DNA of 64,000 bases. It comes from Nitrospirota bacterium. Lineage in GTDB: Bacteria; Nitrospirota; Nitrospiria; Nitrospirales; Nitrospiraceae. The notes under the pieces were generated by a model. That model ran no database searches, was not told the DNA's origin, and worked only from the letters and a program-made list of their open reading frames with translations. The position numbers and the translations under genes were made by a program. The stretch is from contig CAVPBK010000009.1 of the NCBI GenBank assembly GCA_963701855.1, positions 256,001 through 320,000 on the forward strand, read 5' to 3'. Numbering within the stretch: the first letter of the stretch is position 1; the number at the start of each line of letters is the position of its first letter. Shown in pieces: positions 43,191-61,936 of this stretch.

Positions 43191-44093
43191 ATGCCCAGCC
43201 TTCAATCCGTCAGACGCAAGATCGATTCCGTTAAAAAAACCCAAAAAATCACGAAAGCCATGAAAATGGTTGCGGCGGCGAAACTCAAACGCACGCAGGC
43301 CCGCATTCTCGCGGCGCGGCCCTATGCCCTGAAGATGCGGGAGGCGATCCGCAACCTCAGCCGGCGTGTCAATCGAGAGGCTCACCCGTTGCTCCGTAAA
43401 CGGGAAGGCGCCCACCGTAACGTGATCGTAACGGTCGTGACGAGCGACCGCGGATTATGCGGGGCATTTAACGCGAACATTCTCCGCACGGCCGTCAATG
43501 CACTGAAGGAATTGGAATCCCGCGGTGTGAAGGCTGAGGTCGCTGTGGTCGGTCGGAAAGGCCGCGACTTTTTTCGGCGACGAGACTGGACGGTGCGTCG
43601 TGAGGTGGTGGACATCTTCGATAAATTGTCGTTCGAGCACGGGATGGTGATGGGAGAAGAATTTCCAGCCATCGTCGAATACTCGGAGGGGCATATCGAT
43701 GCGGTGTATATCATCTACAATGAGTTCAAATCCGCCATCCAGCAACGGGTGGTTGTCGAACAGCTCCTTCCATTCGACTGGATCGTTGAAATCACCGGCG
43801 TGAAGGACCTTGACCAAGCCACCGATGTCGTCCCCGGAGGTTATCAGTATGAACCGAGTGAGGACGAACTGCTTAGGCAGCTTCTTCACCGTAACCTCCA
43901 CGTCCAGGCGTACCGTGTGCTGCTGGAATCTTCGGCCGCCGAGCAGGGTGCCCGCATGGCGGCTATGGACGGCGCCACGCGCAACGCGGGTGAACTCATC
44001 AAAAAGCTGACGACCTACTATAACAAGACCAGGCAATCCGTGATCACCAAGGAACTCATGGATATAGTCGGTGGCGCCGAAGCCCTGAAATAA
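43191..44093 (+). CDS. atpG: F1Fo ATP synthase gamma subunit (no other atp genes adjacent)
   Basis: KITKAMKMVAAAK, TSDRGLCGAFN, ARMAAMDGATRNA, YNKTRQSVITKELMDIVGGAEAL. Confidence 0.97.
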   Translation: MPSLQSVRRKIDSVKKTQKITKAMKMVAAAKLKRTQARILAARPYALKMREAIRNLSRRVNREAHPLLRKREGAHRNVIVTVVTSDRGLCGAFNANILRTAVNALKELESRGVKAEVAVVGRKGRDFFRRRDWTVRREVVDIFDKLSFEHGMVMGEEFPAIVEYSEGHIDAVYIIYNEFKSAIQQRVVVEQLLPFDWIVEITGVKDLDQATDVVPGGYQYEPSEDELLRQLLHRNLHVQAYRVLLESSAAEQGARMAAMDGATRNAGELIKKLTTYYNKTRQSVITKELMDIVGGAEALK

Positions 44094-44238: not shown

Positions 44239-45342
44239 ATGGACCGACTCAAGACGGTAACCCATTCCCCTTCCGTTCGCCTCCACCACTGGTTCATGAC
44301 CTACCGGATCGTCACCTGCGCCGCCCTCAGCCTCTGGGCCGGCCTGACGTTCAACGGATCCATCCTTGAGGCAGCAACTCTCCCGACGGCCGATGAAGTC
44401 TTTCAAGAATTGCATCTATCGGACATCGACCGGAAAAACATCATGCAGGGCAAGATCGTCGATTGGTCGGCCAGTGAAGGGTCGGATCGGGAGTTGGCGA
44501 TTGGTTTTGCCGGGCTGGTCAAAGCCAAACCACAGGATCTGTATCCGTCTTATCGGGAAGCCCTCGTGCTCAAAGAGGTGCCGGTGATCACGGCCTATGG
44601 TCGCCTCACAGGAGAAGGCACCATGGCGGACTTGGCCGGGGTAAAGTTGCAACCGAATGGAGAGAAGGAAGCCAAGCGTTATTTGAATGTGCAACCGGGC
44701 AACGAATTGAATCTCGACGCGAAGGAGATCGCGGCTTTCCAAGCGCTGAAGGCAGGAGGCGATGCGGACGCCGTGCCTGTAGAAAAAGTCGAGGCCCTTG
44801 TGCGCCAGGGGTTGTTGGCCCGATACCAAGCCTATCGAAAAGGAGGACTGTCCGGCATCGCACCCTATGAGCGTGGCGGTTCGGATCAGCTGCGTGCCGG
44901 GGATGAGTTGCTGCTATCCACGAAGAGCTTGACTGGTACCGCCAAGCATCTCCCGGCTTTCCACAAGTTCCTGCTCAACTATCCCAACGGTCTGACCACG
45001 GAGGAGGCCAAGAATCTGGAAGAATTCTTCTTTTGGCTCAATATCGACGTGTTCGGCCGCCCGACCTATGTGCTGGTTCATCGTATGCTATACCACATAG
45101 GCGACGCAGCGCTCGCTGTCGAGCGCCATTTTTACGCGAGCCACGATTACAACAGCATGCTCCAGCAAGTCGCCGCGGTTCCGACCAAAGACGGCACCGT
45201 GTTATTTTACATCGGTCGGGTCTCGACCGATCAAGTGGCGGGGTTTGGGTCTTCAGCGCTTCATCCTGTGTCCCGCGCTATCGCCGCGCCATATCTCAAG
45301 GACATGTTCATCAAAATTCAGGCCAAAGAGGGGAGGAAGTAG
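44239..45342 (+). CDS. secreted hypothetical protein, paralog 1
   Basis: RBS AGGAG, signal-like segment; shares SDRELA, LNLDAKEIAAF, FGRPTY, SHDYNS and RVSTDQV with the next gene. Confidence 0.8.
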   Translation: MDRLKTVTHSPSVRLHHWFMTYRIVTCAALSLWAGLTFNGSILEAATLPTADEVFQELHLSDIDRKNIMQGKIVDWSASEGSDRELAIGFAGLVKAKPQDLYPSYREALVLKEVPVITAYGRLTGEGTMADLAGVKLQPNGEKEAKRYLNVQPGNELNLDAKEIAAFQALKAGGDADAVPVEKVEALVRQGLLARYQAYRKGGLSGIAPYERGGSDQLRAGDELLLSTKSLTGTAKHLPAFHKFLLNYPNGLTTEEAKNLEEFFFWLNIDVFGRPTYVLVHRMLYHIGDAALAVERHFYASHDYNSMLQQVAAVPTKDGTVLFYIGRVSTDQVAGFGSSALHPVSRAIAAPYLKDMFIKIQAKEGRK

Positions 45343-45344
45343 CT

Positions 45345-46457
45345 ATGAAAATGGTCGCGGCGGCGAAATTCACCGGTACGCAGAACCGCTCTCTCGCGTC
45401 AGGGCCCTGCTTCATGACCCGCAGAATCGTCACCTGCGTCGCCCTCAGCCTCTGGATCGGCCTGACGTTCAACGGATCCATTCTTGATGCAGCAACCCTC
45501 CCGACGGCCGACACAGTCCTTCTAGATTTACATCTATCGGACAGCGACCGGGCAGACATCCGGCAGGGCAAGATCGTTAAATGGTCGGCCACTGAAGGGT
45601 CGGATCGGGAACTGGCGGTCGGCATGGTCTTGCTGGCCAAGACAAAAGCCGAGAATCTTGTCGAGATCTTTCGTGAGGCCAGTGCCTATAAAGAAGAAAA
45701 AGCGGTCACGGCGCATGGCGAGATTGCGGGTGACGGAACGCTGGCCGATTTCGCGGGCGTGAAGCTGGAACCGAACGGAGAGAAGGAGGCCCTCCGCTAC
45801 CTCTCGGCGGGACCGGGCGGGGACCTGAATCTGGACGCGAAGGAGATCGCCGCCTTTCGAGCGCTGAAACCAGCCGGCGGGAAGGTTGCCGTGACAGACG
45901 AGCAGGTCGAGGCACTAGTGCGCCAGACCTTATTGTCGCGATACCAGGCCTACCGGGCGAATGGACTTGCAGGCATCGCACCCTACGAGCGTAAAAACGG
46001 GCTTCGCCTGCAGGCGAGCGACGAACTGTCCCTGGCAGTCAAGCAGATGAAACTCCTGGCCATATATGCCCCGTCCGTGCATACCGCATTGCTCAATTAT
46101 CCGGCTGCCAAGGAAGGCCAGAAGGCTCTTGAAGAACATTTCTACTGGCTGAATATGGACCTCTTTGGACGTCCGACATACGCCTTGTCTCACCGCATGC
46201 TCTTCCAGGTCGGCGAAGTCTACTTCGCCTCGGATCGCCACTACTACACCAGCCACGATTACAACAGCCTGCAGCAGGGAGTGACAGCGCTTCCAACCAA
46301 GGACGGCACGCTCGTGATCACCCTGGTCCGAGTGTCAACCGACCAGGTGGGCGGCTTTGGATCTTCGGCAAAACATTCCATCTCTCGTGCCCTTATGGGA
46401 CCCTACTTTGACAGCCTGTACGAAACCCTTCGAGCCAAGGCAGAGAAGAAACAGTAG
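45345..46457 (+). CDS. secreted hypothetical protein, paralog 2, with AtpG-like N-terminal peptide
   Basis: ATG 45345 after GGAGG; starts MKMVAAAKFTGTQNRSLASGP, then aligns with paralog 1. Confidence 0.8.
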   Translation: MKMVAAAKFTGTQNRSLASGPCFMTRRIVTCVALSLWIGLTFNGSILDAATLPTADTVLLDLHLSDSDRADIRQGKIVKWSATEGSDRELAVGMVLLAKTKAENLVEIFREASAYKEEKAVTAHGEIAGDGTLADFAGVKLEPNGEKEALRYLSAGPGGDLNLDAKEIAAFRALKPAGGKVAVTDEQVEALVRQTLLSRYQAYRANGLAGIAPYERKNGLRLQASDELSLAVKQMKLLAIYAPSVHTALLNYPAAKEGQKALEEHFYWLNMDLFGRPTYALSHRMLFQVGEVYFASDRHYYTSHDYNSLQQGVTALPTKDGTLVITLVRVSTDQVGGFGSSAKHSISRALMGPYFDSLYETLRAKAEKKQ

Positions 46458-47854: not shown

Positions 47855-48649
47855 TTACTTCATCCCGGCCAGAAGATCGATGAGCCCCTGGTCGGCAAAA
47901 TCGAGCTGAATGAGACCGAACCGCGGGTAGTCGAGATCGAAGATCACATAAATGGTGAGCGTCACGACGACCGCGAACGTGAATACGTGGAGCCTGACGT
48001 TGCGTGTCTTGGTGTAGGCCAATACATACCCGGCCAGCAAGGAGCAGACCAGCCCGAGAATCAGGAGGACGGCAAAAATTAATATAGGGGTGTGCGTACG
48101 TGCCGCAATGGTGCGAGCGGTGGTCACGTCGATCATTTGGTTCAGCGCCGGGACCATGACGATCGTCGCCTGCGGCGGCGCCTCTTTCAATGCAACGAGA
48201 GCCCCGGCCCAGATCTCATTCTGCAACGTCATGCCAACCGCTGCCCGCGCATTAGAGGCCTCAATGTCGGGTAACAGCCGATAGACCGCGATGCGCGCTT
48301 CGGCATACTGGCGGAACTTCTCCCGCAGCGCCGGTTGCGATGCAGCCGGCAGGAGATCGAGCCGTAAATAGGCCGTGCTGATGGCATTCGCTTCCTCCAC
48401 GATCAACTCGCGGCGCAGCTCATACCGGGAAGCGGCGCCCGAGAACGTGAACGCAATCATCAAGCCCATGAGGCCAAAGATAGCGGTTTCGACTCCCGTC
48501 AGTCGTGAACGAACGACATCCGTCTCTTGTCCGAGGCTTCGCTGTCCCCATCGCTGCCCGATTGTCAGCATCAGGAGCATGCCGGCAAAGAGACCCAGGA
48601 TCAGTAAGAACGCGATGGCGTTATAACTCAGGCCAGACTCACCAGCCAT
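47855..48649 (-). CDS. DUF4239-like integral membrane protein
   Basis: GLMIAFTFS.A.SRYE.RR..IVEEANAISTAYLR and C-terminal DLDYPR.GLI. Confidence 0.8.
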   Translation of the reverse strand: MAGESGLSYNAIAFLLILGLFAGMLLMLTIGQRWGQRSLGQETDVVRSRLTGVETAIFGLMGLMIAFTFSGAASRYELRRELIVEEANAISTAYLRLDLLPAASQPALREKFRQYAEARIAVYRLLPDIEASNARAAVGMTLQNEIWAGALVALKEAPPQATIVMVPALNQMIDVTTARTIAARTHTPILIFAVLLILGLVCSLLAGYVLAYTKTRNVRLHVFTFAVVVTLTIYVIFDLDYPRFGLIQLDFADQGLIDLLAGMK

Positions 48650-48699: not shown

Positions 48700-48818
48700 T
48701 GTTCGTTTGGTCTGTCTCGTCTATCTGATTTATTTGGTTTGTCTTGTTGATTTGGTTCATCGAATTGGTCTTGTCTAACCAAATAAACTAAATAAACCAG
48801 ACCAACCAAACAGACCAC
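48700..48818. repeat. inverted 9-mer array in 5' region of the DUF4239-like gene
   Basis: TTTGGTCTG/TTTGTCTTG units followed by AAACCAGAC/AAATAAACT units. Confidence 0.65.
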
Positions 48819-49169: not shown

Positions 49170-49457
49170 TTAGGCTACTTCCAACTCCTCGTGCACGCGC
49201 CGGCCAAGCGCCGTGGCGATATTCACCAAAGCATCCAGGGAGAACCGCGACACCCTCCCGCCCAACAGGTCATTAATGCGCGGCTGAGTGACGCCGCAAT
49301 GAGTTGCAGCGTCGGACTGCTTCCAGTCCTTGGCCTTGATGATAACCGCGATCTGCTGCATCAATTCGGCCCGCGCCTGAAGATTGGCTGCCTGCTCAGG
49401 CGTGTCGGCAATCGCATCCCACAGGCTACTGAAAGTCTTGGTTTTGTTCTTGGTCAT
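49170..49457 (-). CDS. XRE/HigA-like HTH antitoxin
   Basis: WDAIADTP..AANL..RAELM, HTH QSDAATHCGVTQPRINDLL.G..SRFSLDALV. Confidence 0.85.
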   Translation of the reverse strand: MTKNKTKTFSSLWDAIADTPEQAANLQARAELMQQIAVIIKAKDWKQSDAATHCGVTQPRINDLLGGRVSRFSLDALVNIATALGRRVHEELEVA

Positions 49458-49465
49458 AGTCCACC

Positions 49466-49512
49466 TCACATCAGTTCGGTGAATGACTTTTTAGCAAGCT
49501 CGAAGTCACCGG
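49466..49512 (-). pseudogene. C-terminal stub of a RelE/HigB-like toxin
   Basis: GDFELAKKSFTELM* directly upstream of the antitoxin; the rest is unrecognisable. Confidence 0.4.
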
Positions 49513-49811
49513 AGAAGCCATGCCCGTGCAGCCGGCCATAATCTAATTTTCTCTCAGCATGTACTACTTCTTCCTGTGAATGGATGACTGGTGCGCAGAA
49601 CTCACCGGCGGCAGCACGAACAAGCAGGGTTCGCCTGTGCTGATATAGCAAGCAGATTCTCTGCGACGTGCGTGAGAGCATAAAGATTCGGAATTGACGT
49701 GTCTACGCAGAACAACCGGACACCCGTGTCTTGCCGAATGCGTCCACTCCGTCCTGCATTGCTCCAAAGCAGACGGTTTGCTAATCTCCGCTCGGACCAC
49801 TATTCGAGCGA

Positions 49812-51386
49812 ATGACAATCTTGATCAAACATGTGGTAGTGAACGTCGCTGCACTGTTTGTCCTGTTACTCTCTGCCATCCATTTCTGGACCCAGCCAGC
49901 CTGGGCAGGTGAGGCACAAGCCGCCTCGCCATCCCCATCCGAACCCACGCAGGTGGACAAACCGTCCCCGGTGGAGCAACCCGCTGATCGCCCCTCTGAA
50001 CAGCGCCTCGGACCGCTCGCACATCGCTTCCAAGAGATTATCTTCTCGGACGGTTCGGGACTGAGCGTCCCGCAGTCCCCGCTCCACCTTGATCAGTTGC
50101 TCCATGTCCCCGAATGGCTGCACCTGGGTCTCGACTTCCGTACACGCTACGAAGCCTACAGCCAGCCGGTCAAAAAGAACGAGACGACTGGAGCCGCGCA
50201 ATTTTCTGAGCGCACGGATGTTCAGCTCGGCATCCATTATAAGCCGTTCAAATTTCACGCGGAGTTTCTGGACGCCCGCCCGCTCTACAACTACGGCCTC
50301 ACGGTCAGCAACCGGATGGAAAACCAGAACGATCTGCTGCAACTCTATGGCAGCGTGGGGACGGACAATTTCCTCGAATCGGGCCTACCGGCCGAGCTGC
50401 AGGTTGGTAAGTTTACTCAAGTTTTTGGAAAGGGCCGGCTCATCGCTAGGAGTCAGTACAGCAACGTCCCCATTTCGTTCGTGGGCGCTCACTGGACATT
50501 GGGAACACTCAAGGATTGGGAAATCAGGGCGTTTGTCATGCGCCCGGTACAAAATCATCAGACATCACCGGACACCGTCCCCTCGAATACTCTGTTTAGC
50601 GGCATGTCGTATCTGGACCAGCGCATGCCCTGGTTCCATACTGAGCTGTACGCCTATTACATATCGCAGAACGAGCAGGTACAGGGCACCACCGGCATCA
50701 ATCAGGACCAGAGTACCCAAGGTCAACTGGCGGACCTCTACACCCCAGGCTTCCGGCTCTTCAAGCCGGAAGCCAAGGCAACCTTCGATTATGAAATCGA
50801 ATCCGCCTACCAGTTCGGTCGATCGGCACTCAAGCCCGGATCCCCTGTATTAACCACATTCGCGTACTTTCAGCATGCGGAGGTAGGGTACACGTTCGAT
50901 CACCCCTGGACACCGTCGATCCGTTTCAAATACGACTATGCCAGCGGCGACAGTGATCCCAACGACAACAAGAACGGCCGTTTCAATCCACTCTTCGGTA
51001 CACAAAGTTTCCCATTCACGTACACGGGCATCTGGTCCCTATTCAAACGGGCGAATATCAGCTCCCCAGGCTATGTCCTGTCCATGGAACCGCTGAAGGA
51101 TGTCCACGTCTTCTTCAAACAGCGCTTTTGGTGGTTGGCCCAGTCCAAAGACGAGTTCGTCGGATCTGGTCTGCAGGATTCAACCGGGCGTGCCGGCAAG
51201 TATGTGGGATCGGAAATTGATCTGCGGCTGGCCTGGACCGTCAGCCAGAATCTGCTGCTTGAAGGAGGATGGATGTATCTGATCAAGGGGAGTTACTATT
51301 CCAATCTCTTGAGCCAAGGCGTTGCGGGCGCCCCCAACGACAACAATACTAATTATGTGTTCGTGTCTATGCGGCTCTTTTTCTGA
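49812..51386 (+). CDS. alginate export family outer-membrane porin
   Basis: Signal peptide ending AWA, DFRTRYE, DYASGDSDP.D....F.PLFG, GSEIDL, C-terminal Phe. Confidence 0.85.
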   Translation: MTILIKHVVVNVAALFVLLLSAIHFWTQPAWAGEAQAASPSPSEPTQVDKPSPVEQPADRPSEQRLGPLAHRFQEIIFSDGSGLSVPQSPLHLDQLLHVPEWLHLGLDFRTRYEAYSQPVKKNETTGAAQFSERTDVQLGIHYKPFKFHAEFLDARPLYNYGLTVSNRMENQNDLLQLYGSVGTDNFLESGLPAELQVGKFTQVFGKGRLIARSQYSNVPISFVGAHWTLGTLKDWEIRAFVMRPVQNHQTSPDTVPSNTLFSGMSYLDQRMPWFHTELYAYYISQNEQVQGTTGINQDQSTQGQLADLYTPGFRLFKPEAKATFDYEIESAYQFGRSALKPGSPVLTTFAYFQHAEVGYTFDHPWTPSIRFKYDYASGDSDPNDNKNGRFNPLFGTQSFPFTYTGIWSLFKRANISSPGYVLSMEPLKDVHVFFKQRFWWLAQSKDEFVGSGLQDSTGRAGKYVGSEIDLRLAWTVSQNLLLEGGWMYLIKGSYYSNLLSQGVAGAPNDNNTNYVFVSMRLFF

Positions 51387-51796: not shown

Positions 51797-52162
51797 TTAA
51801 ACGTCCTCCGGGATAGGCTTGTTTATCTCTTTTTTCTCAAGAGTGCCTGACTCGAACTTGATGGCCTTTTCAATAGCCTCGCTTAACGATTCTCCATACG
51901 CGAAATATCTGTAGCTGACATAAGCCGTGAAACACCCCACTGCCAACTCACCGACTCCAAGCAGCATGGCAGCGCCGACACCTACTACGAACCCTGGAAG
52001 GGTCCCGTGGCCCGGGAGGACGTGAAACACATGCCGGACTCCAGTACCTACCGCGTCCCAGCCTTCCTCTAGGGCATTGACTACGCCCTTGCCGCTCGCA
52101 GCAACAGAATCAGTCAAAGTCGCCGATTCTGTTTCCATCGTGTCGGTTGTGCTCTCTTCCAT
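51797..52162 (-). CDS. small Gly-rich membrane protein
   Basis: ATG 52162 after GGAGGAGAGG; hydrophobic GFVVGVGAAMLLGVGELAVG segment with GxxxG spacing. Confidence 0.65.
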   Translation of the reverse strand: MEESTTDTMETESATLTDSVAASGKGVVNALEEGWDAVGTGVRHVFHVLPGHGTLPGFVVGVGAAMLLGVGELAVGCFTAYVSYRYFAYGESLSEAIEKAIKFESGTLEKKEINKPIPEDV

Positions 52163-52667
52163 GTTCCTCTCCTCCATATTCATTTCCTTCAGACTCAATA
52201 ATTCACGCGCAAATGTTATCTGAACCGTAATCGCTTGTAAAGATGTCCGAGGAGGGGCACCTCGGTTACACCGGCCACTGTCGCTGAAGAGAGAGCTTGA
52301 TAACGAGACACTCCTCCAGCGCACATTCGCCGCTCCTGAGTCTTCCGCTGTCGGCAGAAGGCCAGGCGTTTTGTGAGCTTCTGCATTTAAACAAATAAAC
52401 CAGCACAGAGCGTACACAGCCTGCTGTTGTTTCTTTTACACAGGGACTCGGTTCAAATCAGGCCCCGGGCGAAATAGTTAAAGCATACAATTATAGATAA
52501 TGGCATACATAACTGTTATACATGAATTATACTGATTGTAGATGGTCTCTCATGCTCATTTGTGTCACAGACCAACACCATTATATATATGCATCTGACT
52601 CATTATAAGGAAATTGCCTCCAGTTCCCCAGGTAGACACAAGACATCGGAATGGATCAATCAGGCGC

Positions 52668-53315
52668 TCAGGGGTTGTTGATGGGGGACGAGCCGGGAGA
52701 TACCCGGAGCATAAAGAACAGTTCTCTCAACGGCAGGAGGATCCAGAGGAGCAGCGCGACATTGTTGCTCACGAGGGAGACAATGATGCTTACCAACGCG
52801 AGTCCGGGAGCGGCATAGACGGCCCACACCGGAACCGTCACCCAGGTTCCGCCCGTCTCATCCGTCCGCCATTTTTCCCTCGCCAACACATACTGCCCCA
52901 ACACGTTCATCGACAAGGAGGCCAGCCCAAGATTCGCGGAGAAGACGATCGTGGCAATACGGTCGCCCTCATAATGACCGATCAGAGAGGCGGCATACGG
53001 GGCCAGCGAGATGAAGAGCAAATGCACGAAGTTGAGCACCAGCGCACGCGCATCACACTTGGTTACTGACTGAAAGATCCGGTGATGATTCAACCAGAAG
53101 AAAGCGACCACAGAAAAACTGATGATATAGGCGAAAAAGTTAGGGAGTTGCTCAAACAGGTCGGTGGTCAACTGGGGATTGGTGATCCCCGGAATCTCCG
53201 GCACCTTGAGATCCAGCACGAGCAGTGTGAGGGCAAACGCATACACGCCGTCCGAGACGGCGCACAGGCGGTCATGTGTGTGCGTGTGTTTCAGAAACAG
53301 GGGCAGTGCTCTCAT
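52668..53315 (-). CDS. TMEM175-family potassium channel
   Basis: RLCAVSDGVYAFALTLLVLDL (RxxxFSD-type motif), YIISF.VV..FW..HH. Confidence 0.88.
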   Translation of the reverse strand: MRALPLFLKHTHTHDRLCAVSDGVYAFALTLLVLDLKVPEIPGITNPQLTTDLFEQLPNFFAYIISFSVVAFFWLNHHRIFQSVTKCDARALVLNFVHLLFISLAPYAASLIGHYEGDRIATIVFSANLGLASLSMNVLGQYVLAREKWRTDETGGTWVTVPVWAVYAAPGLALVSIIVSLVSNNVALLLWILLPLRELFFMLRVSPGSSPINNP

Positions 53316-53458
53316 GAATTAGCCTCAGACCCTGGCGCACGTTGAAGCGGCCCGTATTTCTTGAGCCAATGATGGAGAGAGACTATGTCACGGATATATT
53401 GCGAAAAAAGTCAGGAAAAACGCTCGACCGAGGCTCGCGCATGAGGCAGTGAGAAGGC

Positions 53459-54130
53459 CTACTGCCCTGCTTTGGGAACTGGCTCTCCGGCTTCAGGCTC
53501 ATCGCCTGTCTTCAAGATGGTGGCCTTGGAGAAGCAGTACGTGGACAGGATCAGGAACGGTACGCCAGGAACCCCCGGCACAGCAAACATCGCTACTCCC
53601 ACGACCATGCTGGCATATCCCACCATCCAATAGCCTTGCTTGACTGACCCGGCTGCTTGAGGCACACCATTGGAACCAGGGCTACTTTCTGCCGTATTCA
53701 GGTATCGCCACGGCTGCAACCAGGTCATCGCAAACGAATTGGTTGCAGCCTCGGGCAACGCGGCAGATGCACACTGTTCGAGCTCTTCGCGATTACGACT
53801 TTGCAGGAATAGGCACAGCGACTTCGAAGTCCACATCGCGGGATCGTGCACGACCGTGACACTCTGGCAGCCTGGCGCAACAGTGACTTCAGTGACGCCA
53901 GCTTGCACCGACAGCAATGGTCGTAGTCCGCCGACCATATGCGAATCGGCTTTGAGAGTCGGCACACGCAGCCGGACACGCCCAGGAATCGAATGAATGA
54001 CGTGGGTGGCCGCCAAGGGTCCGTTGAGTTGCACCGATGCAGACCGGTTCTCTCCACCTCCAGGCACGGACGAGGAGTTGTTGACTCCCTCAAGTGGCAT
54101 ATCAGATGGGCTCAGATCATTCCGGGCCAT
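53459..54130 (-). CDS. HMA2-domain membrane protein
   Basis: VIHSIPGRVRLRVP..GVTEV.....SVTV.HD domain; C-terminal TM with PGVPFLILS..CF. Confidence 0.75.
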   Translation of the reverse strand: MARNDLSPSDMPLEGVNNSSSVPGGGENRSASVQLNGPLAATHVIHSIPGRVRLRVPTLKADSHMVGGLRPLLSVQAGVTEVTVAPGCQSVTVVHDPAMWTSKSLCLFLQSRNREELEQCASAALPEAATNSFAMTWLQPWRYLNTAESSPGSNGVPQAAGSVKQGYWMVGYASMVVGVAMFAVPGVPGVPFLILSTYCFSKATILKTGDEPEAGEPVPKAGQ

Positions 54131-54143
54131 TCGTACGACCTCG

Positions 54144-56663
54144 TCATCCCGCGATGGTGACCTTCTCAGTCATAGGTGAAGGCAGGAGTTTTATGCCAGG
54201 ACGCGCTGGAGAAACGACCTTGACCGGTTGCTGCTCCATGATCGGACGAAGGCCGTTGAGCGTCGCGATAATCGCCGACCCGTTGCTGAGCAGTGTGGCC
54301 CCAATCGGTCCAAGCAAGCCGATACAGGCCAGACCGGCTGCGAACGTGTTGGGAATTGAAATGATCTTCCAATTCTGCCGGATCAACGCGACCGTTTCGC
54401 GGCCGATGTCGATCGCGAGGGGAACCTTCCAGAGCCCCCCGTGCAAGAGCACCACAGGCGCCGTTTCCCTGGCTGCTTCCGTGCCTCCTTCAACGGCAAT
54501 GCCCACGTCGGCATAGGCCAGCATGGGAGAGTCGTTGACTCCGTCTCCGACAACGGCGACCTTATATCCCTCGCGTTGCAGACGCTGGACTGCCTCCGAC
54601 TTGTCTCCCGGAAACACTTCGGCCAGGTACTCGGTGATCCCAAGTTCCGCGGCAATTCTCCTGGCAACATCCTTGTGATCGCCGGTGATCATCACGATAC
54701 GTTTAATTCCCCGATCCCTCAATGCCTGGACGATATCCCGTGCCTCGGGCCGCAAGGGGTCGGAGATGGCTAGTAATCCGATTACGAGCCCGTCTTTCGC
54801 TACGCAGAGTGGAGAAATCGCCTGTTGCTGCATCATCAAGATCAGTTCCTGCGTCTCCGGCGATAGGGTCAACCCACGAAGCGTCATGAACCTGGGACTT
54901 CCCACCAGAACCACCGAATCGTTTACAATCGCCTCAACACCGAGACCCAGGCTGTAATCCGACGCGGTCCGGTCCGGGATCGACAGCTGTCTGGCCTCTG
55001 CAGCCCGGACGATGGCGTCCGCCACAGGATGCGTCATCCGCAGTTCCGCTGCGGCGGCCAGCGCGAGCACCTCATCGGCTGTACTGCCGTTGACCGGCAC
55101 CACATCCAGGATGTCGGGATGCCCCGTGGTCAAGGTGCCGGTCTTGTCGAAGACGACGGCATCCACTTCCGCGAGGCTTTCCAGATGCCGCCCTCCTTTG
55201 ATCAGAATCCCGTTCCGAATTGCCTTCGTCATAGCGGATAAGACAGTCGTGGGAGCCGCAATCCTGATTCCCGTTCCGTAGTCGACAACAAGGACGGCAG
55301 CCGCGCCCTGAAGACCGCCTCCCATCACGGCTCCGATGGCGCTTCCCACGAAGCTGTAGGGTACGAGATCGTTCGCCCACTTGACGGCGTAATTCTGGAT
55401 TTTGGTTTCACGAGCCGGCGCGGCCTCCACGAGCCGCAGGATCTGAGCGGCCTCTGTTGCGTTTCCAATCCGCTCGGCGCAGATATAGATTTTCCCTTCC
55501 CGCACCACCGTGGCAGCGTAGACAAGAGCGCCCTCCTCCTTCTCGACCGGGAGCGATTCGCCGGTGAGCGAGGCCTGGTCCACCAGAGCCTTGCCGCTGA
55601 GCACAGTGCCATCCACGGCAATACGCTCGCCCGGATAGACGACCACGGTCTCGCCGATTTGAACCTCTGCCACGCTGACGCGCACTTTCTGTCCGTCGCG
55701 CACCACCCAGGCCTCGATGTTCTGGTAGCCGAGGATTTCCTCGATCGCCTTCTTCGATTGCATCATGGTGAGGTCGCGAATCCAGTCCGCGACGTTGATA
55801 AGCCAGACCATGAAGATTGCCATCGGGAAGGTGCCTTGCATGACGAGCAACGTAGTGGCGGAGGCATCCAGCACATCGACGTTGAGCTTGCCGTCTTCCG
55901 AAATCGAGTGATGGGCCCGCTTGAGCATCGGCATGGCGCTGGCCAGAAGCAACAGGGGCACCAGCGGCAGCACCAGCGGTTCGACGAGGAACACCAGACA
56001 GATTCCGGCGCTCGAATACCAGAGTTCATTTCCCGCCTCATCAGTCGGGGCCTGTGCCTGATCTACCGCCTCTTTCGCAGATTTGTACGATAGAACCTCT
56101 GCTGCCGAGAGTAGTTGCAGCCACACGCAGAGCCTGTTGGGCGTCCAGACGGCGGGGTCGCAGGTGACCGTCACACTGTGACACCAGTCATTCACTGTGA
56201 CATCGGTCACGCCTGGCTGGTCCTTGAGAAGCCGCTGCAGTGGTTCGACTAGGCCTGGCGAGGTCTTGAGCGCCGGCACTCGCAATCTGATACGTCCGCG
56301 AACTGCATGGACCACGCTGGTATCAGCCAGCGTATCGGTAGGTTTCGCACGCGTTGTTATGAGCTCAGCAATGGCAACCGACGGAGAGGGATGATCTCCG
56401 TTCTTGGGTTCAGCAATCGCAACAGACGCAGAAGGATGATCTCCATTTTTCTGGTGCGGTGGTATCTGGTGAGGGATCAGGGCCGAGAGCGCATCCCGCT
56501 CGCTTCCATTCGGGAGGAGACTGAAGACAAAGCCGTTCCCCTTTTCATCTTCAGGGTTCAATGATTTCCGCTTTTTCCCAACCTTTATGATTCGCTTTTC
56601 GGCCCGAATTGTTTTCACGATGATACAAATCCTTTTCGGAAATGAATCGGCCGCTGCCTCCAT
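54144..56663 (-). CDS. P1B-type heavy-metal ATPase with HMA2 domain (FezB/P1B-6-like, non-CPx)
   Basis: TGES, DKTGT, HP, TGD, GDGVND; N-terminal HAVRGRIRLR; membrane motif VDYGTGIR in place of CPx; start uncertain. Confidence 0.92.
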   Translation of the reverse strand: MEAAADSFPKRICIIVKTIRAEKRIIKVGKKRKSLNPEDEKGNGFVFSLLPNGSERDALSALIPHQIPPHQKNGDHPSASVAIAEPKNGDHPSPSVAIAELITTRAKPTDTLADTSVVHAVRGRIRLRVPALKTSPGLVEPLQRLLKDQPGVTDVTVNDWCHSVTVTCDPAVWTPNRLCVWLQLLSAAEVLSYKSAKEAVDQAQAPTDEAGNELWYSSAGICLVFLVEPLVLPLVPLLLLASAMPMLKRAHHSISEDGKLNVDVLDASATTLLVMQGTFPMAIFMVWLINVADWIRDLTMMQSKKAIEEILGYQNIEAWVVRDGQKVRVSVAEVQIGETVVVYPGERIAVDGTVLSGKALVDQASLTGESLPVEKEEGALVYAATVVREGKIYICAERIGNATEAAQILRLVEAAPARETKIQNYAVKWANDLVPYSFVGSAIGAVMGGGLQGAAAVLVVDYGTGIRIAAPTTVLSAMTKAIRNGILIKGGRHLESLAEVDAVVFDKTGTLTTGHPDILDVVPVNGSTADEVLALAAAAELRMTHPVADAIVRAAEARQLSIPDRTASDYSLGLGVEAIVNDSVVLVGSPRFMTLRGLTLSPETQELILMMQQQAISPLCVAKDGLVIGLLAISDPLRPEARDIVQALRDRGIKRIVMITGDHKDVARRIAAELGITEYLAEVFPGDKSEAVQRLQREGYKVAVVGDGVNDSPMLAYADVGIAVEGGTEAARETAPVVLLHGGLWKVPLAIDIGRETVALIRQNWKIISIPNTFAAGLACIGLLGPIGATLLSNGSAIIATLNGLRPIMEQQPVKVVSPARPGIKLLPSPMTEKVTIAG

Positions 56664-56781
56664 CAATTCCAAATATGAATTTCACATTGCTGATCGAGCA
56701 CTATCGGCTGATTACGAGTGGGCGATCTTCGTCGCCTAATAACACGTGCCCTCAACCGCAGGCGGCTCAAGCGCTCAGTCC

Positions 56782-56997
56782 TTACTGGCCACCCTTGTCA
56801 TCAGTCTTGTCCGTCTCCTGTGCCTGGGTCTTCGACGTCTCCAACTCGGACTTTGCCTCCGCAAGAAGATCCTTGAACTTCTCGCCCGTCTCAGAGGCAT
56901 ATTCGGAGGCCGCACCAGCCACAACGATTCCACCCTTGATCAGTTCTTTAAGAATGGGACGGAACATGGACCCGATCCCTGATACGATGCGCTCCAC
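56782..56997 (-). CDS. small DUF5132-like protein
   Basis: RBS GAAGGAGG; RPILKELIKGGI...EKFKDLLAEAKSEL. Confidence 0.75.
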   Translation of the reverse strand: MERIVSGIGSMFRPILKELIKGGIVVAGAASEYASETGEKFKDLLAEAKSELETSKTQAQETDKTDDKGGQ

Positions 56998-57355
56998 AGT
57001 TGACCTCCTTCGTTAGCAGCCTGCTCGAACAACAACGGCAGTTCTTTTAATCTACATCGCCGTAAGTAAATAATTCAATGAATGCATCCCTGATGATTGT
57101 GTGTTATATACCCATCTAATAGGGGGGACCGACGCAGACAATATGAGTGATTTCTTGGTCTAAGGGAGCGACGGTAATCTGGATTTGGAGAGTCGTACGA
57201 ACGCGAACTTCAGCTTGCGAGCCCCTTCGACAGACTCTACTTACCCCCGTCGAAGGGATCATGCGCGAGAGAGCAACCGGCTGCCTCAGCCAGCCTGAGC
57301 AGGTTGGCCCTGACAGGAATGTGAGCGGAAACCCTTGGCGCGATAGCTTCAGACG

Positions 57356-57625
57356 TTAATGAGTCGCTTGCACCTCGGCCGGCAAGGTTTCTCCCGTAGG
57401 GGTCGCAGCCAGTTCAGCTTTAGCTTCCGCAACTAAATCACTGAAGTAGCTACCCCCTCCGGAACACATATCGGACACGGCTTCTTGGACGACCAGCCCG
57501 CCCTTGACCACTTCCTTTGCCGCAGCCCACGCCACCGTCCCTGCGCTTGACGCGACACTCATGACTACCTTCGAAGCGACTGCACCGATTACCACACCGG
57601 CTACGCTGCCGATAATAACTTCCAT
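57356..57625 (-). CDS. small DUF5132-like GxxxG membrane protein
   Basis: RBS GGGAGGGAG; GSVAGVVIGA, AKEVVKGGL...FSDLVAEAKAEL; paralog of 56782-56997. Confidence 0.75.
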   Translation of the reverse strand: MEVIIGSVAGVVIGAVASKVVMSVASSAGTVAWAAAKEVVKGGLVVQEAVSDMCSGGGSYFSDLVAEAKAELAATPTGETLPAEVQATH

Positions 57626-57859
57626 AACTCCCTCCCTTTCGGTTAGATCATCCCTCATGCGTGAAGGATTCACCAGGCGTTAACGCTTTCTCACTGTAGC
57701 CGAACTATTTCTCTGGAGTCAACTGCTTCGAAAAGCTCAACGGACCCCTCTGCCGATTCATGACATGACGAACCGTTGCCACTGGCTGGCAAATCATATA
57801 CGATGCGGCTTCGCGCCATCTAGGAAAGGTGCGGAGAAAAATTGAGGAGCCTACCGATC

Positions 57860-58648
57860 GTGGCACGCCTCATCGCCATCATCAATCAAAAGGGCGGAAG
57901 CGCCAAGACGACGACCACTGTCAACCTGGCATCGGCACTGGGCAGGCAGGATCGGCGAGTGCTCGTGCTGGATCTCGATCCGCAAGCTTCCGCATCAAGT
58001 TGGCTCGGAGCGAAAGACGGTGAACGAGGTCTGCTGGACGTCTTGACCAACGGATTGGCCCTGGCCGGACTGATTCAACCGACGTCGGCCGACGGTGTCG
58101 AGATAGTTCCTTCTTCTACCTGGCTGGTCGGAGTTGAGAAAGCCCTCGCGAGTACAGTCGGAGCGGAAACGATTCTGCGTCAACGACTCGCCGCGCTGGA
58201 GGGACGGTGGCACTATATCCTCATCGACTGCCCCCCCACGCTCGGCATCCTGGCGACCAACGCGTTGGTCGCAGCCAAGGAGGTGCTGATTCCCGTGGAG
58301 TGCCATGTCATGGGTCTTGGTGGACTTGCGCGGTTGCTCCAAACTATCGAGATCATCAAGGAGCGACTCAATCCCGATATCAAGGTGGCCGGCATTCTGG
58401 CTTGCCGCGTCGATGCGAGAACTCGCCACGCGCAGGAAGTGGTCGAGCAACTCCGAAACCGCTTCGGTCCGCTCGTATATGACACGATGATCCGGGAAAA
58501 TATTCGTTTGGCCGAATGTCCCTCGTTCTGCCAGCCCATCGATCGCTATGATCCGTTCTGTGCCGGAGCGGTGGACTACCGGAAGCTGGCAAGCGACGTC
58601 ATGAAGCAAGAAAGTCAATCACCGGCACGAGTTACCGCTCTCAGGTAA
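57860..58648 (+). CDS. ParA/Soj-family ATPase
   Basis: Deviant Walker A NQKGGSAKTTT, DLDPQAS, IDCPPTLG, IRENIRLAECPS; GTG after GAGGAG. Confidence 0.92.
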   Translation: MARLIAIINQKGGSAKTTTTVNLASALGRQDRRVLVLDLDPQASASSWLGAKDGERGLLDVLTNGLALAGLIQPTSADGVEIVPSSTWLVGVEKALASTVGAETILRQRLAALEGRWHYILIDCPPTLGILATNALVAAKEVLIPVECHVMGLGGLARLLQTIEIIKERLNPDIKVAGILACRVDARTRHAQEVVEQLRNRFGPLVYDTMIRENIRLAECPSFCQPIDRYDPFCAGAVDYRKLASDVMKQESQSPARVTALR

Positions 58649-58679
58649 CCGTCCACCCGCTACAGAAAAATGTATTCAG

Positions 58680-59018
58680 ATGGCAAAGCGAAAAACGATC
58701 GGGGAAAATCCACTAGACGCGATCGCGCCTGATCGCACAGCGCGTCAAAAGAAAGAGACCGTTGCGGCTACGAACCCACGGCCTGCTGTTGCAGTCTCGC
58801 CCGCTGAGCCACGGCGGCCGGCGAAGACGGCGCCGGCCGCCGTTAATCCTGAAAAGGGAACGGCCACCTCTATTATCCAGGCTACTCGGACACAAGCCCC
58901 GGCTCGACAAACACCAGCGCAACAAGATTTGCTCCGCCGCATCAAGTCTCTAGAGGAGCAGAATACGTTGATGAAATGGCTGGTCTATGGAGCGATTGGG
59001 CTGGCCTTTCTGTTGTGA
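58680..59018 (+). CDS. small putative ParA partner with C-terminal membrane anchor
   Basis: Basic N-terminus MAKRKTIGENPLD, Pro/Ala/Thr linker, short coiled coil LLRRIKSLEEQN, terminal WLVYGAIGLAFLL. Confidence 0.75.
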   Translation: MAKRKTIGENPLDAIAPDRTARQKKETVAATNPRPAVAVSPAEPRRPAKTAPAAVNPEKGTATSIIQATRTQAPARQTPAQQDLLRRIKSLEEQNTLMKWLVYGAIGLAFLL

Positions 59019-59090: not shown

Positions 59091-60149
59091 TCATACCGGT
59101 AGAAAGAAAAACCCGATCGCGAGCATCAGATAGACGGCGATCAGCATCACTCCCTCCATCCAGTGACACTCTCCGTCGGAGGTCTGGCGACTGACGATGG
59201 CGACGGCGAGGACGATCGCCACGATCTCAAAGGCGGTGAAGTGCAGATCCATGGGCTTCCCCATGAAGTAGCCTGCAAACACCAGTACCGGAGCTACGAA
59301 CAACGCCACCTGCGTGCTGGCCCCGACCGCGATGCCGAACGATAAATCCATCTGGTCTTTTCTGGCGAACCCCACGGCATTCATGGCCTCTGCGGCATTG
59401 CCGACCAGCGCGAGAAAAATGATGCCCGTGAAAATCGGCGTCATCCCGATCGAGGCAGACGCAGGTTCGATCGCTCCGACGAGGATTTCACTCACGACGG
59501 CGATCACGACGGTCACACCGGCCAGTACGGCGATGGATTTCCCTTTGCTCCATGGAGCTTCATGCGAGGCTTCATGCGCCTCTGCCGCACCGGAGGCGTC
59601 AGGTCCAGGCTGGATGAGTTGCCGATGGGTCTTGAGTGTAAACACGAGACTCAACAGATAGGTGACAAAGAGCACGATAGAGATTTGCATGCTCACCTCG
59701 CGCTCTTTGCCTGTTGCAAAATGAAACATGGCCGGGATCAGCAGCGCGACCGCCGCCACGAACAAAAGGCCCCCGCTCATGCCCGCGACGGTGGGATTGA
59801 ACCGCTGACGTTCCCGGCCCCACCCGCCGATGATCATCGACAGGCCGAGTGAAAAAAGCGTATTGCCGAGAATCGAACCGGTGATTGACGCCTTGACGAC
59901 ATCGACAAGCCCCTCTTTCAGAGCAAAGCCGGCGATGATCAGCTCAGGGGCATTCCCGAGGGACGCGCTCAGCAAGCCGCCGATGGTGGCTCCGACATAG
60001 GTCGAGAGATGTTCCGTGGAGCGCCCCATCAGGCCGGCCAGCGGTATGATGGCGAGCGCGGCGGCGGCAAACACCATGACAGGGTTGGCGCCATACCAAT
60101 CAAGCCCCACGGCGATCGGAATAAACACCAACAACAGATTCAAGCCCAT
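59091..60149 (-). CDS. cax: calcium/proton exchanger (CaCA family)
   Basis: Alpha repeats GNAPELI and GNAAEA, GSILGN, GASTQVALFVAP. Confidence 0.93.
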   Translation of the reverse strand: MGLNLLLVFIPIAVGLDWYGANPVMVFAAAALAIIPLAGLMGRSTEHLSTYVGATIGGLLSASLGNAPELIIAGFALKEGLVDVVKASITGSILGNTLFSLGLSMIIGGWGRERQRFNPTVAGMSGGLLFVAAVALLIPAMFHFATGKEREVSMQISIVLFVTYLLSLVFTLKTHRQLIQPGPDASGAAEAHEASHEAPWSKGKSIAVLAGVTVVIAVVSEILVGAIEPASASIGMTPIFTGIIFLALVGNAAEAMNAVGFARKDQMDLSFGIAVGASTQVALFVAPVLVFAGYFMGKPMDLHFTAFEIVAIVLAVAIVSRQTSDGECHWMEGVMLIAVYLMLAIGFFFLPV

Positions 60150-60202
60150 GCTAGTTGTCCTTTCTCGCGGTGTCGATCACACATTTTCAGCACGTCTTGG
60201 AC

Positions 60203-60353
60203 AAGTCTGGTCTGTCTGGTTTGTTTTGTTTATCTGGTTGATTTGGTTCCTCCGGTTAGTTTCGTATACCCAAAAAACCGGAAAAACGAAACAGACCAGA
60301 CAAACCAAATAACGGTCTTCACACGTTGGCGGACTTTTTCAGCATCCTGTTAG
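60203..60353. mobile_element. family A MITE-like element, inverted relative to 18501-18680
   Basis: Reverse complement begins CTAACAGGATGCTGAAAAAGTCCGCCAACGTGTGAAGACCGTTATTTGG; overlaps the TolC stop. Confidence 0.75.
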
Positions 60354-61784: not shown

Positions 61785-61936
61785 CCTGGTCGGTCGTGTC
61801 TGTCTGGTCTATGTGGTCTGTCTTGTCTGTTTGGTCTGTCTGGTTTATTTGGTTGAACAAGACCAACTTGATGAACTAAACAAACCAGACAAACTAGATA
61901 GACCAGACCACCAGATGAACTAGATAGACTAGACAC
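61785..61936. repeat. inverted 9-mer array in 5' region of the TolC gene
   Basis: (TCTGTCTGG)-like units then (CCAGACAAA/CTAGATAGA)-like units. Confidence 0.7.

Follow-up and report, generated by a model that had tools for sequence, protein, structure and literature searches.

The window analysed here, a 64,000-nt stretch of contig CAVPBK010000009.1 from a bacterium of the Nitrospirota, contains a gene island in which a cluster built around a P1B-type ATPase is arranged head to head with the genes of an orphan ParA ATPase and a small partner protein (hereafter the adaptor). The cluster lies on the minus strand and encodes, in order of transcription, DUF5132 protein b (57356-57673, 105 amino acids, aa; PF17195, E-value: 6.2e-4), DUF5132 protein a (56782-56997, 71 aa; PF17195, E-value: 2.4e-6, 28 bits against a cut-off of 25), the P1B-type ATPase with a probable N-terminal CoBaHMA domain (54144-56672; TIGR01525, E-value: 2.9e-150), a 223-aa protein in which a probable CoBaHMA (HMA_2) domain with the signature HSIPGRVRLR is joined to a DUF454-like C-terminal membrane hairpin (53459-54130), a TMEM175-family K+ channel (52668-53315, 215 aa; PF06736, E-value: 1.2e-27) and a GxxxG-type small membrane protein (51797-52183, 128 aa from the ATG at 52183, in a reading frame extendable to 52417). 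Across a spacer of 168 bp (57674-57841), the plus strand carries parA (57842-58648, 268 aa; AAA_31, E-value: 9e-50; CbiA, E-value: 2e-24) and then the adaptor gene (58680-59018, 112 aa). The gene for a CAX Ca2+/H+ exchanger (59091-60149, minus strand, 352 aa; TIGR00378, E-value: 3.8e-107) comes immediately after this pair, and past it lies a gene for a TolC-like outer-membrane efflux protein (OEP). The DNA sequencing runs that cover most of the window are soil metagenomes.

The listing of open reading frames (ORFs) and the Pfam and NCBIfam profile scans recovered, in place, every gene and part that an earlier sequence-only reading of this DNA had claimed: two paralogous DUF5132-like proteins (both match PF17195 and they are 42% identical over 57 aa), a non-CPx P1B ATPase with an N-terminal HxxxGRxRLR motif, a second HxxPGRxRLR protein with a membrane tail, a further GxxxG protein, and a ParA partner without ParB or helix-turn-helix (HTH) domain (the adaptor has no Pfam or NCBIfam match). 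The same reading had missed the TMEM175 gene inside the cluster and the adjoining cax.

Within the divergent spacer, sigma-70-like promoter sites stand back to back (57776-57804 on the plus strand and 57722-57693 on the minus strand). When five relatives are aligned, a 13-mer box between the promoters (CTGCCGATTCATG, 57750-57762) does not vary, and most rows keep the -35 and -10 elements. The -35 element of parA is overlapped by an inverted repeat, TTGCC-N7-GGCAA (57776-57792); a sigma-54 promoter was considered for this repeat and dropped by eye because of unsuitable spacing. As this shared divergent control region is conserved, its sequence suggests that the pump operon and the parA operon are jointly controlled. 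One metatranscriptome library has contigs that cover the pump, DUF5132a, ParA, the adaptor and CAX in part, with 91-100% identity, a weak hint of expression in a library where DNA carry-over is possible; runs X21 and X22, also metatranscriptomes, yielded nothing beyond short pieces of low identity.

The pump and its genomic company

In its fourth transmembrane helix (TM4, DYGTGIRIAAPT; tested motif VVDYGTGIRIAAPT) the pump reads DYGTG, without a CPx motif, and in the sixth (TM6, LLSNGSAIIATLNGLRP) it reads SNGSA; the TGES, DKTGT and GDGVND motifs are intact in the translation. The N-terminus contains HAVRGRIRLR and weakly matches HMA_2 (PF19991), the Pfam family equivalent to the CoBaHMA domain (bioRxiv 10.1101/2024.07.07.602159). 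The HMA_2 matches of the pump and the 223-aa protein, at 26.0 and 20.4 bits, are under the Pfam cut-off of 30 in spite of the HxxxGRxRLR signature in both, and orthologous pumps from loci L012, L015 and L020 score 69-81 bits. The start codon of the pump is uncertain because orthologues align only from residue ~55 or ~110. A direct duplication (NGDHPS[AP]SVAIAE, twice) lies in the N-terminal extension (~56350-56450, residues ~75-105), and part of this N-terminal stretch may be an untranslated leader.

FezB, the P1B-6 ATPase of the fez (ferrosome) clusters, is defined by D[Y/F]SCA in TM4 and HNxxT in TM6 (Grant et al., bioRxiv 10.1101/2020.01.10.902569). In the window pump the first is replaced by DYGTG and the second by SNGSA. 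From an exhaustive HMMER search with the pump, the nearest 150 representatives were taken, and among these the TM4 class is D[YF]GTG-like in 79, DYSCA in 35, CPC in 15 and another in 12, with nine fragments. In a FastTree phylogeny of 118 rows (33 representatives that were fragments or of odd length were left out), the D[YF]GTG class forms a single clade (67 rows, support 99) with the window pump nested deep inside it. The sister of this clade is the main DYSCA clade (31 rows, support 98; joint support 100), the rows of which are labelled by motif only in a tree that contains no named FezB, FezH or CtpC sequence. The sequence-only reading had made its ferrosome assignment depend on a place for the pump in the FezB clade; as the pump falls outside the DYSCA clade, in the sister group, and both FezB motifs are absent, the assignment fails by that reading's own criterion. 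To judge from the sequences, the island is a sister system of the fez clusters and their nearest relative in architecture.

The D[YF]GTG pumps appear from their sequences to be a large class of uncharacterised function with no Cys or His in the ion site, comprising at least 79 clusters at 50% identity among the nearest 150. Every close relative of the window pump comes from a Nitrospirales record. The class as a whole is present in several phyla, with member names that include Anaerolineae, Melainabacteria, Desulfobacterales, Leptolyngbyaceae and Cyanothece sp. PCC 7425, a strain listed among those that form intracellular carbonate. Some D[YF]GTG pumps (P0051, P0062, P0081, P0109 and P0152; L051 and L062-type) are extended at the C-terminus by a long stretch, with a conserved ...SKRKSKPDF..W......DP.G..W.Y... 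at its end, that resembles an added domain.

When metagenomes were scanned at the DNA level for the pattern of the TM4 motif, at least 80 loci were obtained, and the counts that follow are among the matches listed. By phmmer, DUF5132 relatives were found in at least 19 of the 80 loci and CAX in at least three. Flanks of 5 kb or more were present at 33 loci, from which 310 neighbour ORFs were picked, and 286 of them (30 loci) were scanned with Pfam; the recurrent neighbours, given with the number of loci out of 30, were stand-alone HMA_2 proteins (10), EcsC (7), phosphate/polyphosphate genes (PPK2, PHO4, PhoU and CHAD/CYTH; 7), DUF5132 (6), DUF445 (4), DUF454 (3), CAX (3) and beta-carbonic anhydrase (Pro_CA; 2). 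Second HMA_2-headed ATPases recur in several of these loci. Because they recur as neighbours, the pump, CoBaHMA proteins and DUF5132 or GxxxG proteins may be regarded as the conserved core, and the accessory genes, as annotated, point to a putative role in cation storage with phosphate or carbonate. Pumps of a more distant type (46-56% identity) are accompanied by GxxxG and DUF5132 genes only, with no ParA, and one such cluster is a second copy in genome G468. This genome holds both types (C7:962263-966593 and C7:1534948-1537062), namely a full island with ParA (pump 80% identical) and the minimal type (pump 52-55% identical), the only neighbours of the latter being CorA- and DUF5132-like. A 5.6-kb contig recorded under a Pyrinomonadaceae metagenome-assembled genome (MAG; L010), labelled Acidobacteriota, encodes ParA, DUF5132, pump and CoBaHMA-DUF454 proteins that are 71-86% identical to those of the window; it is probably a mis-binned Nitrospira contig rather than a case of transfer.

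The earlier description of the cluster as ferrosome-like holds only in part, for its architecture. The fez clusters, as characterised in passages of Grant et al., likewise combine a P1B ATPase bearing an N-terminal R-rich (CoBaHMA-like) motif with a further R-rich membrane protein (here the 223-aa HSIPGRVRLR protein) and small hydrophobic GxxxG proteins (here the 51797-52183 protein and the N-terminus of DUF5132b). As far as the letters go, the CoBaHMA signature HxxxGRxRxR is the motif that the ferrosome paper terms "R-rich", and the RxRxR pattern that marks a fez cluster when it occurs on the pump and at least one other protein is present on both proteins here (HAVRGRIRLR and HSIPGRVRLR), in company with weak HMA_2 matches. 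The likeness does not extend to the pump motifs (DYGTG/SNGSA versus D[Y/F]SCA/HNxxT), to the pump clade or to iron genes: FeoAB, Fur, DtxR, ferritin-like and DUF4405 genes were sought among 25 window ORFs scanned with Pfam and none was found. The island has DUF5132, TMEM175 and CAX, whereas the DUF4405, FeoA and DUF2202 described for fez clusters are not present here, and no ParA is reported in the passages on fez clusters (bioRxiv 10.1101/2020.01.10.902569). Some fez clusters also include FezH, a second R-rich P1B ATPase with distinct transmembrane sites (same source).

With regard to the small proteins, DUF5132a has no strongly hydrophobic segment (Kyte-Doolittle maximum 1.37), and DUF5132b has an N-terminal hydrophobic GxxxGxxxG segment, GSVAGVVIGAVA (maximum 2.53 at residue 19). 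The GxxxG protein has no match in Pfam or NCBIfam; its orthologues, found in related loci that include minimal clusters, are 33-70% identical, making it a core island member, and their alignment shows the conserved pattern FFHxLPGHG...GLGAAMxxGVxEL...YRIFAYGESLxEAIExAIKF with one hydrophobic Gly/Ala-rich segment. ESM Atlas look-ups with this protein and the adaptor gave no usable match (best scores 0.79 and none). The 223-aa protein matches DUF454 (E-value: 4.8e-6) and HMA_2 (E-value: 5e-4), both under the Pfam cut-offs, and its homologues carry PF04304 and PF19991. A search for CoBaHMA-DUF454 homologues returned only Nitrospira-like sequences of at least 54% identity, with no bridge to cyanobacterial proteins. 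The TMEM175 gene is syntenic in L005, L006, L007, L008 and G295. The TMEM175 family is known from eukaryotic endolysosomal membranes, and the channel encoded here could provide counter-ion flux for a pump-loaded compartment. The cax gene is syntenic in 12/20 related loci and in G295, where the ParA pair is absent, it abuts DUF5132b directly.

The island also resembles the surroundings of ccyA, which serves as the marker gene for amorphous Ca-carbonate inside cells (Bruley et al., bioRxiv 10.1101/2024.07.07.602159). In Microcystis aeruginosa PCC 7806, the flanks of ccyA hold two DUF5132 genes, a CoBaHMA-DUF454 gene at position -3, a further CoBaHMA gene and cax; glycine-zipper proteins are encoded near ccyA, and several neighbour genes are co-expressed with it (bioRxiv 10.1101/2024.07.07.602159). 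The window likewise encodes two DUF5132 proteins, a CoBaHMA-DUF454 protein and a further CoBaHMA protein, with cax adjacent (so that DUF5132, CoBaHMA-DUF454 and cax stand side by side) and a Gly-zipper-type membrane protein nearby. The small-protein set of the window appears to be that of the ccyA neighbourhood, a likeness at the level of domain architecture. There are also differences: the CoBaHMA head here sits on a P1B pump, the host is a chemolithotroph and not a cyanobacterium, and the 128-aa GxxxG protein has a single Gly/Ala-rich segment as opposed to the three repeats of the calcyanin (GlyZip)3 domain.

Cation ATPases and a carbonic anhydrase are described for the Fischerella ccyA region, and relatives of the island have an LCIB-type beta-carbonic anhydrase (PF18599, E-value: 1e-55 in L012) in 11/20 related Nitrospirales loci. 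This gene lies between cax and the pump cluster in L012-type loci (L012:8469-9191, L023:8428-9150), and a control search found the family in 0/14 well-known genomes. In L012, L019 and L023, the ParA pair is flanked by genes for an EF-hand protein and CorA. Together, CAX, the EF-hand protein and the carbonic anhydrase point to Ca and carbonate; the transported ion is more plausibly Ca2+ than Fe, perhaps with carbonate or phosphate as its counter-ion.

The ParA ATPase and its adaptor

The window ParA has a deviant Walker A motif of the form KGGxxK[ST] (KGGSAKT, with KGGSGKT in relatives). Its best structure matches are a ParA (8ray, 4e-59) and Soj (1wcv, 2e-53), while McdA (6non/6noo) is matched only at 5e-15, over residues 11-173; by sequence, then, it is classed as Soj type. 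The Soj of the same genome is 38% identical to the window ParA and is adjoined by the only ParB_N gene of the genome, on contig C6. Since this canonical Soj-ParB pair lies on another contig, the window ParA is an orphan and the second ParA of the genome. An alignment of ParA sequences shows a conserved DAR motif, the residues of which are presumably linked to DNA binding, and no evident MinD-like C-terminal amphipathic membrane helix. Two candidate assignments were rejected, namely a ParABS DNA partition system (the partner has no ParB_N, HTH or ribbon-helix-helix domain, and the sole ParB_N gene adjoins soj on C6) and the McdA lineage (the 6non/6noo matches are weak, and no carboxysome gene was found among the ORFs scanned in the window).

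Adaptor homologues number 39, and every named one is annotated as hypothetical. In the 23 that were aligned, the N-terminal peptide MAKRKTIGENPLD (MAKRKTIGxNPLD) is invariant; it is followed by an indel-rich linker that is rich in Pro, Ala, Ser and Thr, by a conserved helix (DLLxRIxSLEEQN) and by a terminal KWLVxGAIxLAxLL, the hydrophobic tail of the window protein being KWLVYGAIGLAFLL. AlphaFold2 predicts that residues 1-78 are disordered and that residues 79-111 form one helix. The basic N-terminus, linker and C-terminal hydrophobic helix of the earlier description stand, and the separate coiled coil is lost, as the single helix runs on into the tail. In distant lineages the adaptor is 137-155 aa long and ~27% identical, and it keeps the N-terminal M[AST]KR[KRS]TIGxNPLD, the helix and the hydrophobic tail; the tail of the 137-aa relatives measures 16-17 residues, with a Kyte-Doolittle maximum of 2.88. 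A partner ORF of 103-155 aa lies downstream of ParA in 7/7 loci with a whole ParA ORF. The adaptor of L009 is readable in two frames; this locus is from a MAG and an assembly indel is possible.

The co-fold that the sequence-only reading had proposed as a check was made with two copies of ParA, two ATP and adaptor residues 1-40, in three runs with three controls. The ipSAE values were 0.70, 0.69 and 0.70, and the best of the three controls reached 0.01; the mark applied is reached by 116/157 solved complexes and 2/215 mismatched pairs. In the models, adaptor residues 4-18 contact both ParA copies at the dimer interface, with a partner pLDDT (predicted local distance difference test) of 51-54 and a contact agreement between runs of at least 56%. 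We consider it likely that ParA and the adaptor pair with each other.

Distribution was assessed with thresholds of E ≤ 1e-150 for orthologues of the ATPase and E ≤ 1e-70 for those of ParA. A family census of 371 genomes found the ATPase in 30, ParA in 10, both in 10 and ParA alone in none; in an order sample of 401 Nitrospirales genomes, the corresponding numbers were 33, 22, 22 and 0. Every ParA-positive genome (10/10 and 22/22) thus has the ATPase, in agreement with the proposed co-occurrence of the ParA pair with the cluster. The ParA-positive genomes belong to two families and seven genera and are patchily distributed (e.g. 2/50 and 3/102 genomes in two genera). In a phylum sample of 301 genomes, a ParA orthologue was found only in the window's own genome and in G177, the other matches listed being at the level of Soj (at most 45% identity).

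Three gene orders were observed. In 8/9 ParA-positive genomes of the first family in the order sample, and in G599 (which is in the family census only), ParA is divergent from the pump and adjacent to it, at 1.1-1.8 kb. In G318 and L020, ParA lies past the 3' end of the pump gene, between pump and CAX. In 7/13 genomes of the second family it is 5.8-10.5 kb from the pump, behind OEP genes, and in the other 6/13, which are fragmented assemblies, ParA and pump are on different contigs. Because no genome has ParA only and linkage is kept through three gene orders, a functional tie can be argued, and the ParA-adaptor pair probably belongs functionally with the island.

The pair shares features with several known positioning systems. 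As in McdA/McdB, an orphan ParA-type ATPase gene lies beside the genes of the presumed cargo (PMC13052382; PMC10241942). McdB is likewise described as a fast-evolving, length-variable partner with a charged, disordered N-terminus that is predicted to bind the ATPase dimer, and W100 of the adaptor is nearly invariant where McdB has an invariant C-terminal Trp. In contrast to McdAB, the window ParA is of the Soj type (2e-53, versus 5e-15 for 6non), the adaptor ends in a hydrophobic tail and not in a shell-binding region, and the presumed cargo is a membrane system instead of a protein shell. Chromosomal Soj/Spo0J provides the closest ParA relative (38% identity to the Soj of the same genome) and, in the model, a similar placement of the partner peptide at the dimer interface, but the adaptor has no ParB_N, HTH or other DNA-binding domain and has a predicted hydrophobic-tail anchor in their place. 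In an engineered system, McdA and MapTag-FezB distribute ferrosomes over the Escherichia coli nucleoid (bioRxiv 10.1101/2025.09.22.677801). There too a ParA-type ATPase acts with an N-terminal peptide on an organelle membrane protein; the tag is fused to the pump, whereas a natural, separate and tail-anchored adaptor, known from genes alone, is proposed here.

Flanking genes and other features of the window

On the side of the island opposite to cax are genes for an alginate-export-type porin (PF13372, E-value: 3e-51; 49812-51386, plus strand) and a bestrophin-like protein (PF14023, E-value: 2.7e-15; 47855-48649, minus strand). The porin gene is conserved in position in L005, L007, L009 and G295, with L012 as a more distant case. 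Bestrophins are conductors of anions, bicarbonate included. At the island edge, an HTH_37/Xre-type small protein (PF13744, E-value: 7e-25) is encoded at 49170-49469 on the minus strand, preceded with a 4-base overlap by a small ORF (49466-49681, minus strand), and the two resemble a toxin-antitoxin-type pair. Further away, an ATP-synthase gamma-chain gene (PF00231, E-value: 1e-96; 43191-44093, plus strand) is followed by two long ORFs without a Pfam match (44239-45342 and 45033-46457), where genes for the alpha and beta subunits would usually stand. Short tandem repeats (periods 9, 18 and 27 nt), with units such as CTGGTCTGT, occur at 61786-61934, 48777-48810 and ~60200-60330. They sit at gene ends and in spacers, similar strings are found at several places in the window, and on the two strands they yield odd ORF ends (LVYLVCLV and DRPNRQDRP).

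A candidate positioning module for a membrane-bounded cation store

Our preferred reading, put forward tentatively, is that the island serves a membrane-bounded cation store and that the ParA ATPase and the tail-anchored adaptor are an McdAB-like module that spaces it. The locus would be an accessory island of the Nitrospirales whose core consists of a D[YF]GTG pump with a CoBaHMA head and of DUF5132, GxxxG and CoBaHMA-DUF454 proteins. Ion carriers would join this core, here a TMEM175 K+ channel and CAX, to which relatives may add the LCIB-type carbonic anhydrase and the EF-hand protein. Together these proteins would build or load the store; that the island forms an intracellular compartment has, in our estimate, a little under an even chance. 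Two families of the Nitrospirales would then have gained the two-gene positioning module of Soj-type ParA and small adaptor. ATP-bound ParA dimers would coat the nucleoid, and the adaptor would hold the cargo membrane by its C-terminal hydrophobic helix, presumably inserted in that membrane. Its basic N-terminal peptide, reaching through the disordered linker into the ParA dimer interface as in the co-fold model, would stimulate ATP hydrolysis by ParA, and the resulting zones of ParA depletion would push the cargoes apart, by analogy with McdAB and carboxysomes.

Several observations weigh against this reading. No inclusion or compartment has been observed in any island-bearing organism, and both the cargo and the pump substrate are inferred; the OEP and the porin of the island would fit plain ion efflux across the envelope. 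The tail of the window adaptor is short and moderately hydrophobic (13-14 residues; Kyte-Doolittle maximum 1.69 in a 15-residue window). The window was searched for remnants of a carbonic-anhydrase gene and for genes of an EF-hand protein and CorA, and none was found; the island lacks the anhydrase in this genome, and the one LCIB match in the same genome is on another contig (G000:C6:714958-715602). As the binding of peptides by ParA is a known mode, part of the co-fold score may be memory of solved complexes. The genomes counted are related and so are not independent cases, which inflates the co-occurrence counts relative to the number of events. In the order sample 11/33 genomes have the ATPase without ParA, and G295, which is complete and on a single contig, has the island and no ParA pair. 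The parA gene of G591 is fragmented, with the adaptor matched at its C-terminus only, and G706 retains no more than a fragment of ParA; because assembly errors are possible in these MAGs, this apparent decay of ParA is only a possibility. Among the 80 metagenome loci listed, which represent the pump class outside the Nitrospirales, phmmer found a ParA orthologue in none (there was one 23-bit match) and an adaptor in none, and no ParA-family Pfam match was obtained among the 286 neighbour ORFs of the 30 loci.

The co-occurrence and co-fold evidence is the same if the ParA pair is tied to the island and its cargo is a cytoplasmic-membrane complex (patches of pump, CAX and small proteins) and not an organelle, in which case it would work like the ParA-like ATPases for chemoreceptor arrays, flagella and cellulose synthase. 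Membrane-associated machines are among the known ParA/MinD cargos (PMC10241942), the island encodes envelope proteins (OEP, alginate-export-type porin and CAX) and the short tail of the adaptor could suit any membrane. We nevertheless think such a cargo unlikely: the closest relatives of the core, the fez clusters, are described as making intracellular vesicles, small proteins of the same kinds are encoded around ccyA, which marks intracellular carbonate granules, and a Soj-type ParA with no evident MinD-like C-terminal membrane helix is suited to a cargo over the nucleoid. A pair linked to the island by descent only, as a remnant of the partition system of a mobile element or as a module for an unrelated cargo, would be a hitch-hiker in an ordinary envelope locus for cation homeostasis or efflux (P1B pump, CAX, TolC-like protein and K+ channel). 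Such a locus would fit the patchy distribution of the accessory island (33/401 genomes), the synteny of the OEP and porin genes, the absence or apparent breakage of the ParA pair in several island-bearing genomes and the related pump clusters without ParA in other phyla (among the loci listed). It is at odds, however, with the retention of the adaptor N-terminus and C-terminal anchor across lineages at 27% identity, with a pair that stays near the island through three gene orders in two families and occurs without it in 0/401 genomes, and with the conserved divergent control region. Neither a ParB nor an HTH domain is present in the pair, the ORFs scanned include no integrase or plasmid gene, and we regard a hitch-hiking pair as improbable.

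Were the island a true ferrosome (iron-phosphate) cluster, its pump would be a divergent FezB and the ParA pair would position ferrosomes. The pump clade is sister to the DYSCA clade, and the fez features listed in the source (R-rich/CoBaHMA head, second R-rich membrane protein and GxxxG proteins) are all present. Some fez clusters carry FezH, the second R-rich P1B ATPase, and phosphate or polyphosphate genes lie beside the pump in 7/30 metagenome loci, ferrosomes being described as holding iron phosphate. This account is nonetheless very unlikely to be correct. At the sites of the two FezB signature motifs the pump has neither Cys nor His, it lies outside the DYSCA clade, the iron genes sought (FeoAB, Fur, DtxR, ferritin-like and DUF4405) were absent from the window ORFs scanned, and CAX, the EF-hand protein and the carbonic anhydrase point to Ca and carbonate in place of iron.

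ParA-type positioning of organelles is established for protein-shelled carboxysomes, and lipid-bounded magnetosomes use an actin-like system (PMC13052382). The list of ParA/MinD cargos in Pulianmackal et al. (2023, PMC10241942) names no lipid-bounded organelle, and in the literature on ParA cargos and organelle positioning, so far as its accessible portions extend, we found no natural ParA system for one, which is not proof of absence. By analogy with the engineered ferrosome system, ParA-type spacing of a lipid-bounded storage organelle appears feasible. In its most specific form our reading is that some soil Nitrospira (nitrite-oxidising or comammox) build membrane-bounded stores of Ca carbonate or phosphate that are segregated by a Soj-derived ParA and a tail-anchored adaptor, a combination of claims that we regard as rather unlikely to hold in full. 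The island links the D[YF]GTG pump class to genes for Ca, carbonate and phosphate, and it bears on the intracellular carbonates of non-cyanobacterial bacteria, for which the literature consulted names no gene set. If this most specific form of our reading is true, the ParA-adaptor pair would be the first ParA-type system from nature to position a lipid-bounded organelle in bacteria, and the island would be the first genetic handle on such biomineralisation outside the ccyA-bearing lineages, with its cargo genes marked out for study. The pair would also be a natural precedent for the engineered solution and would offer synthetic biology a minimal design of "luggage tag plus membrane anchor".

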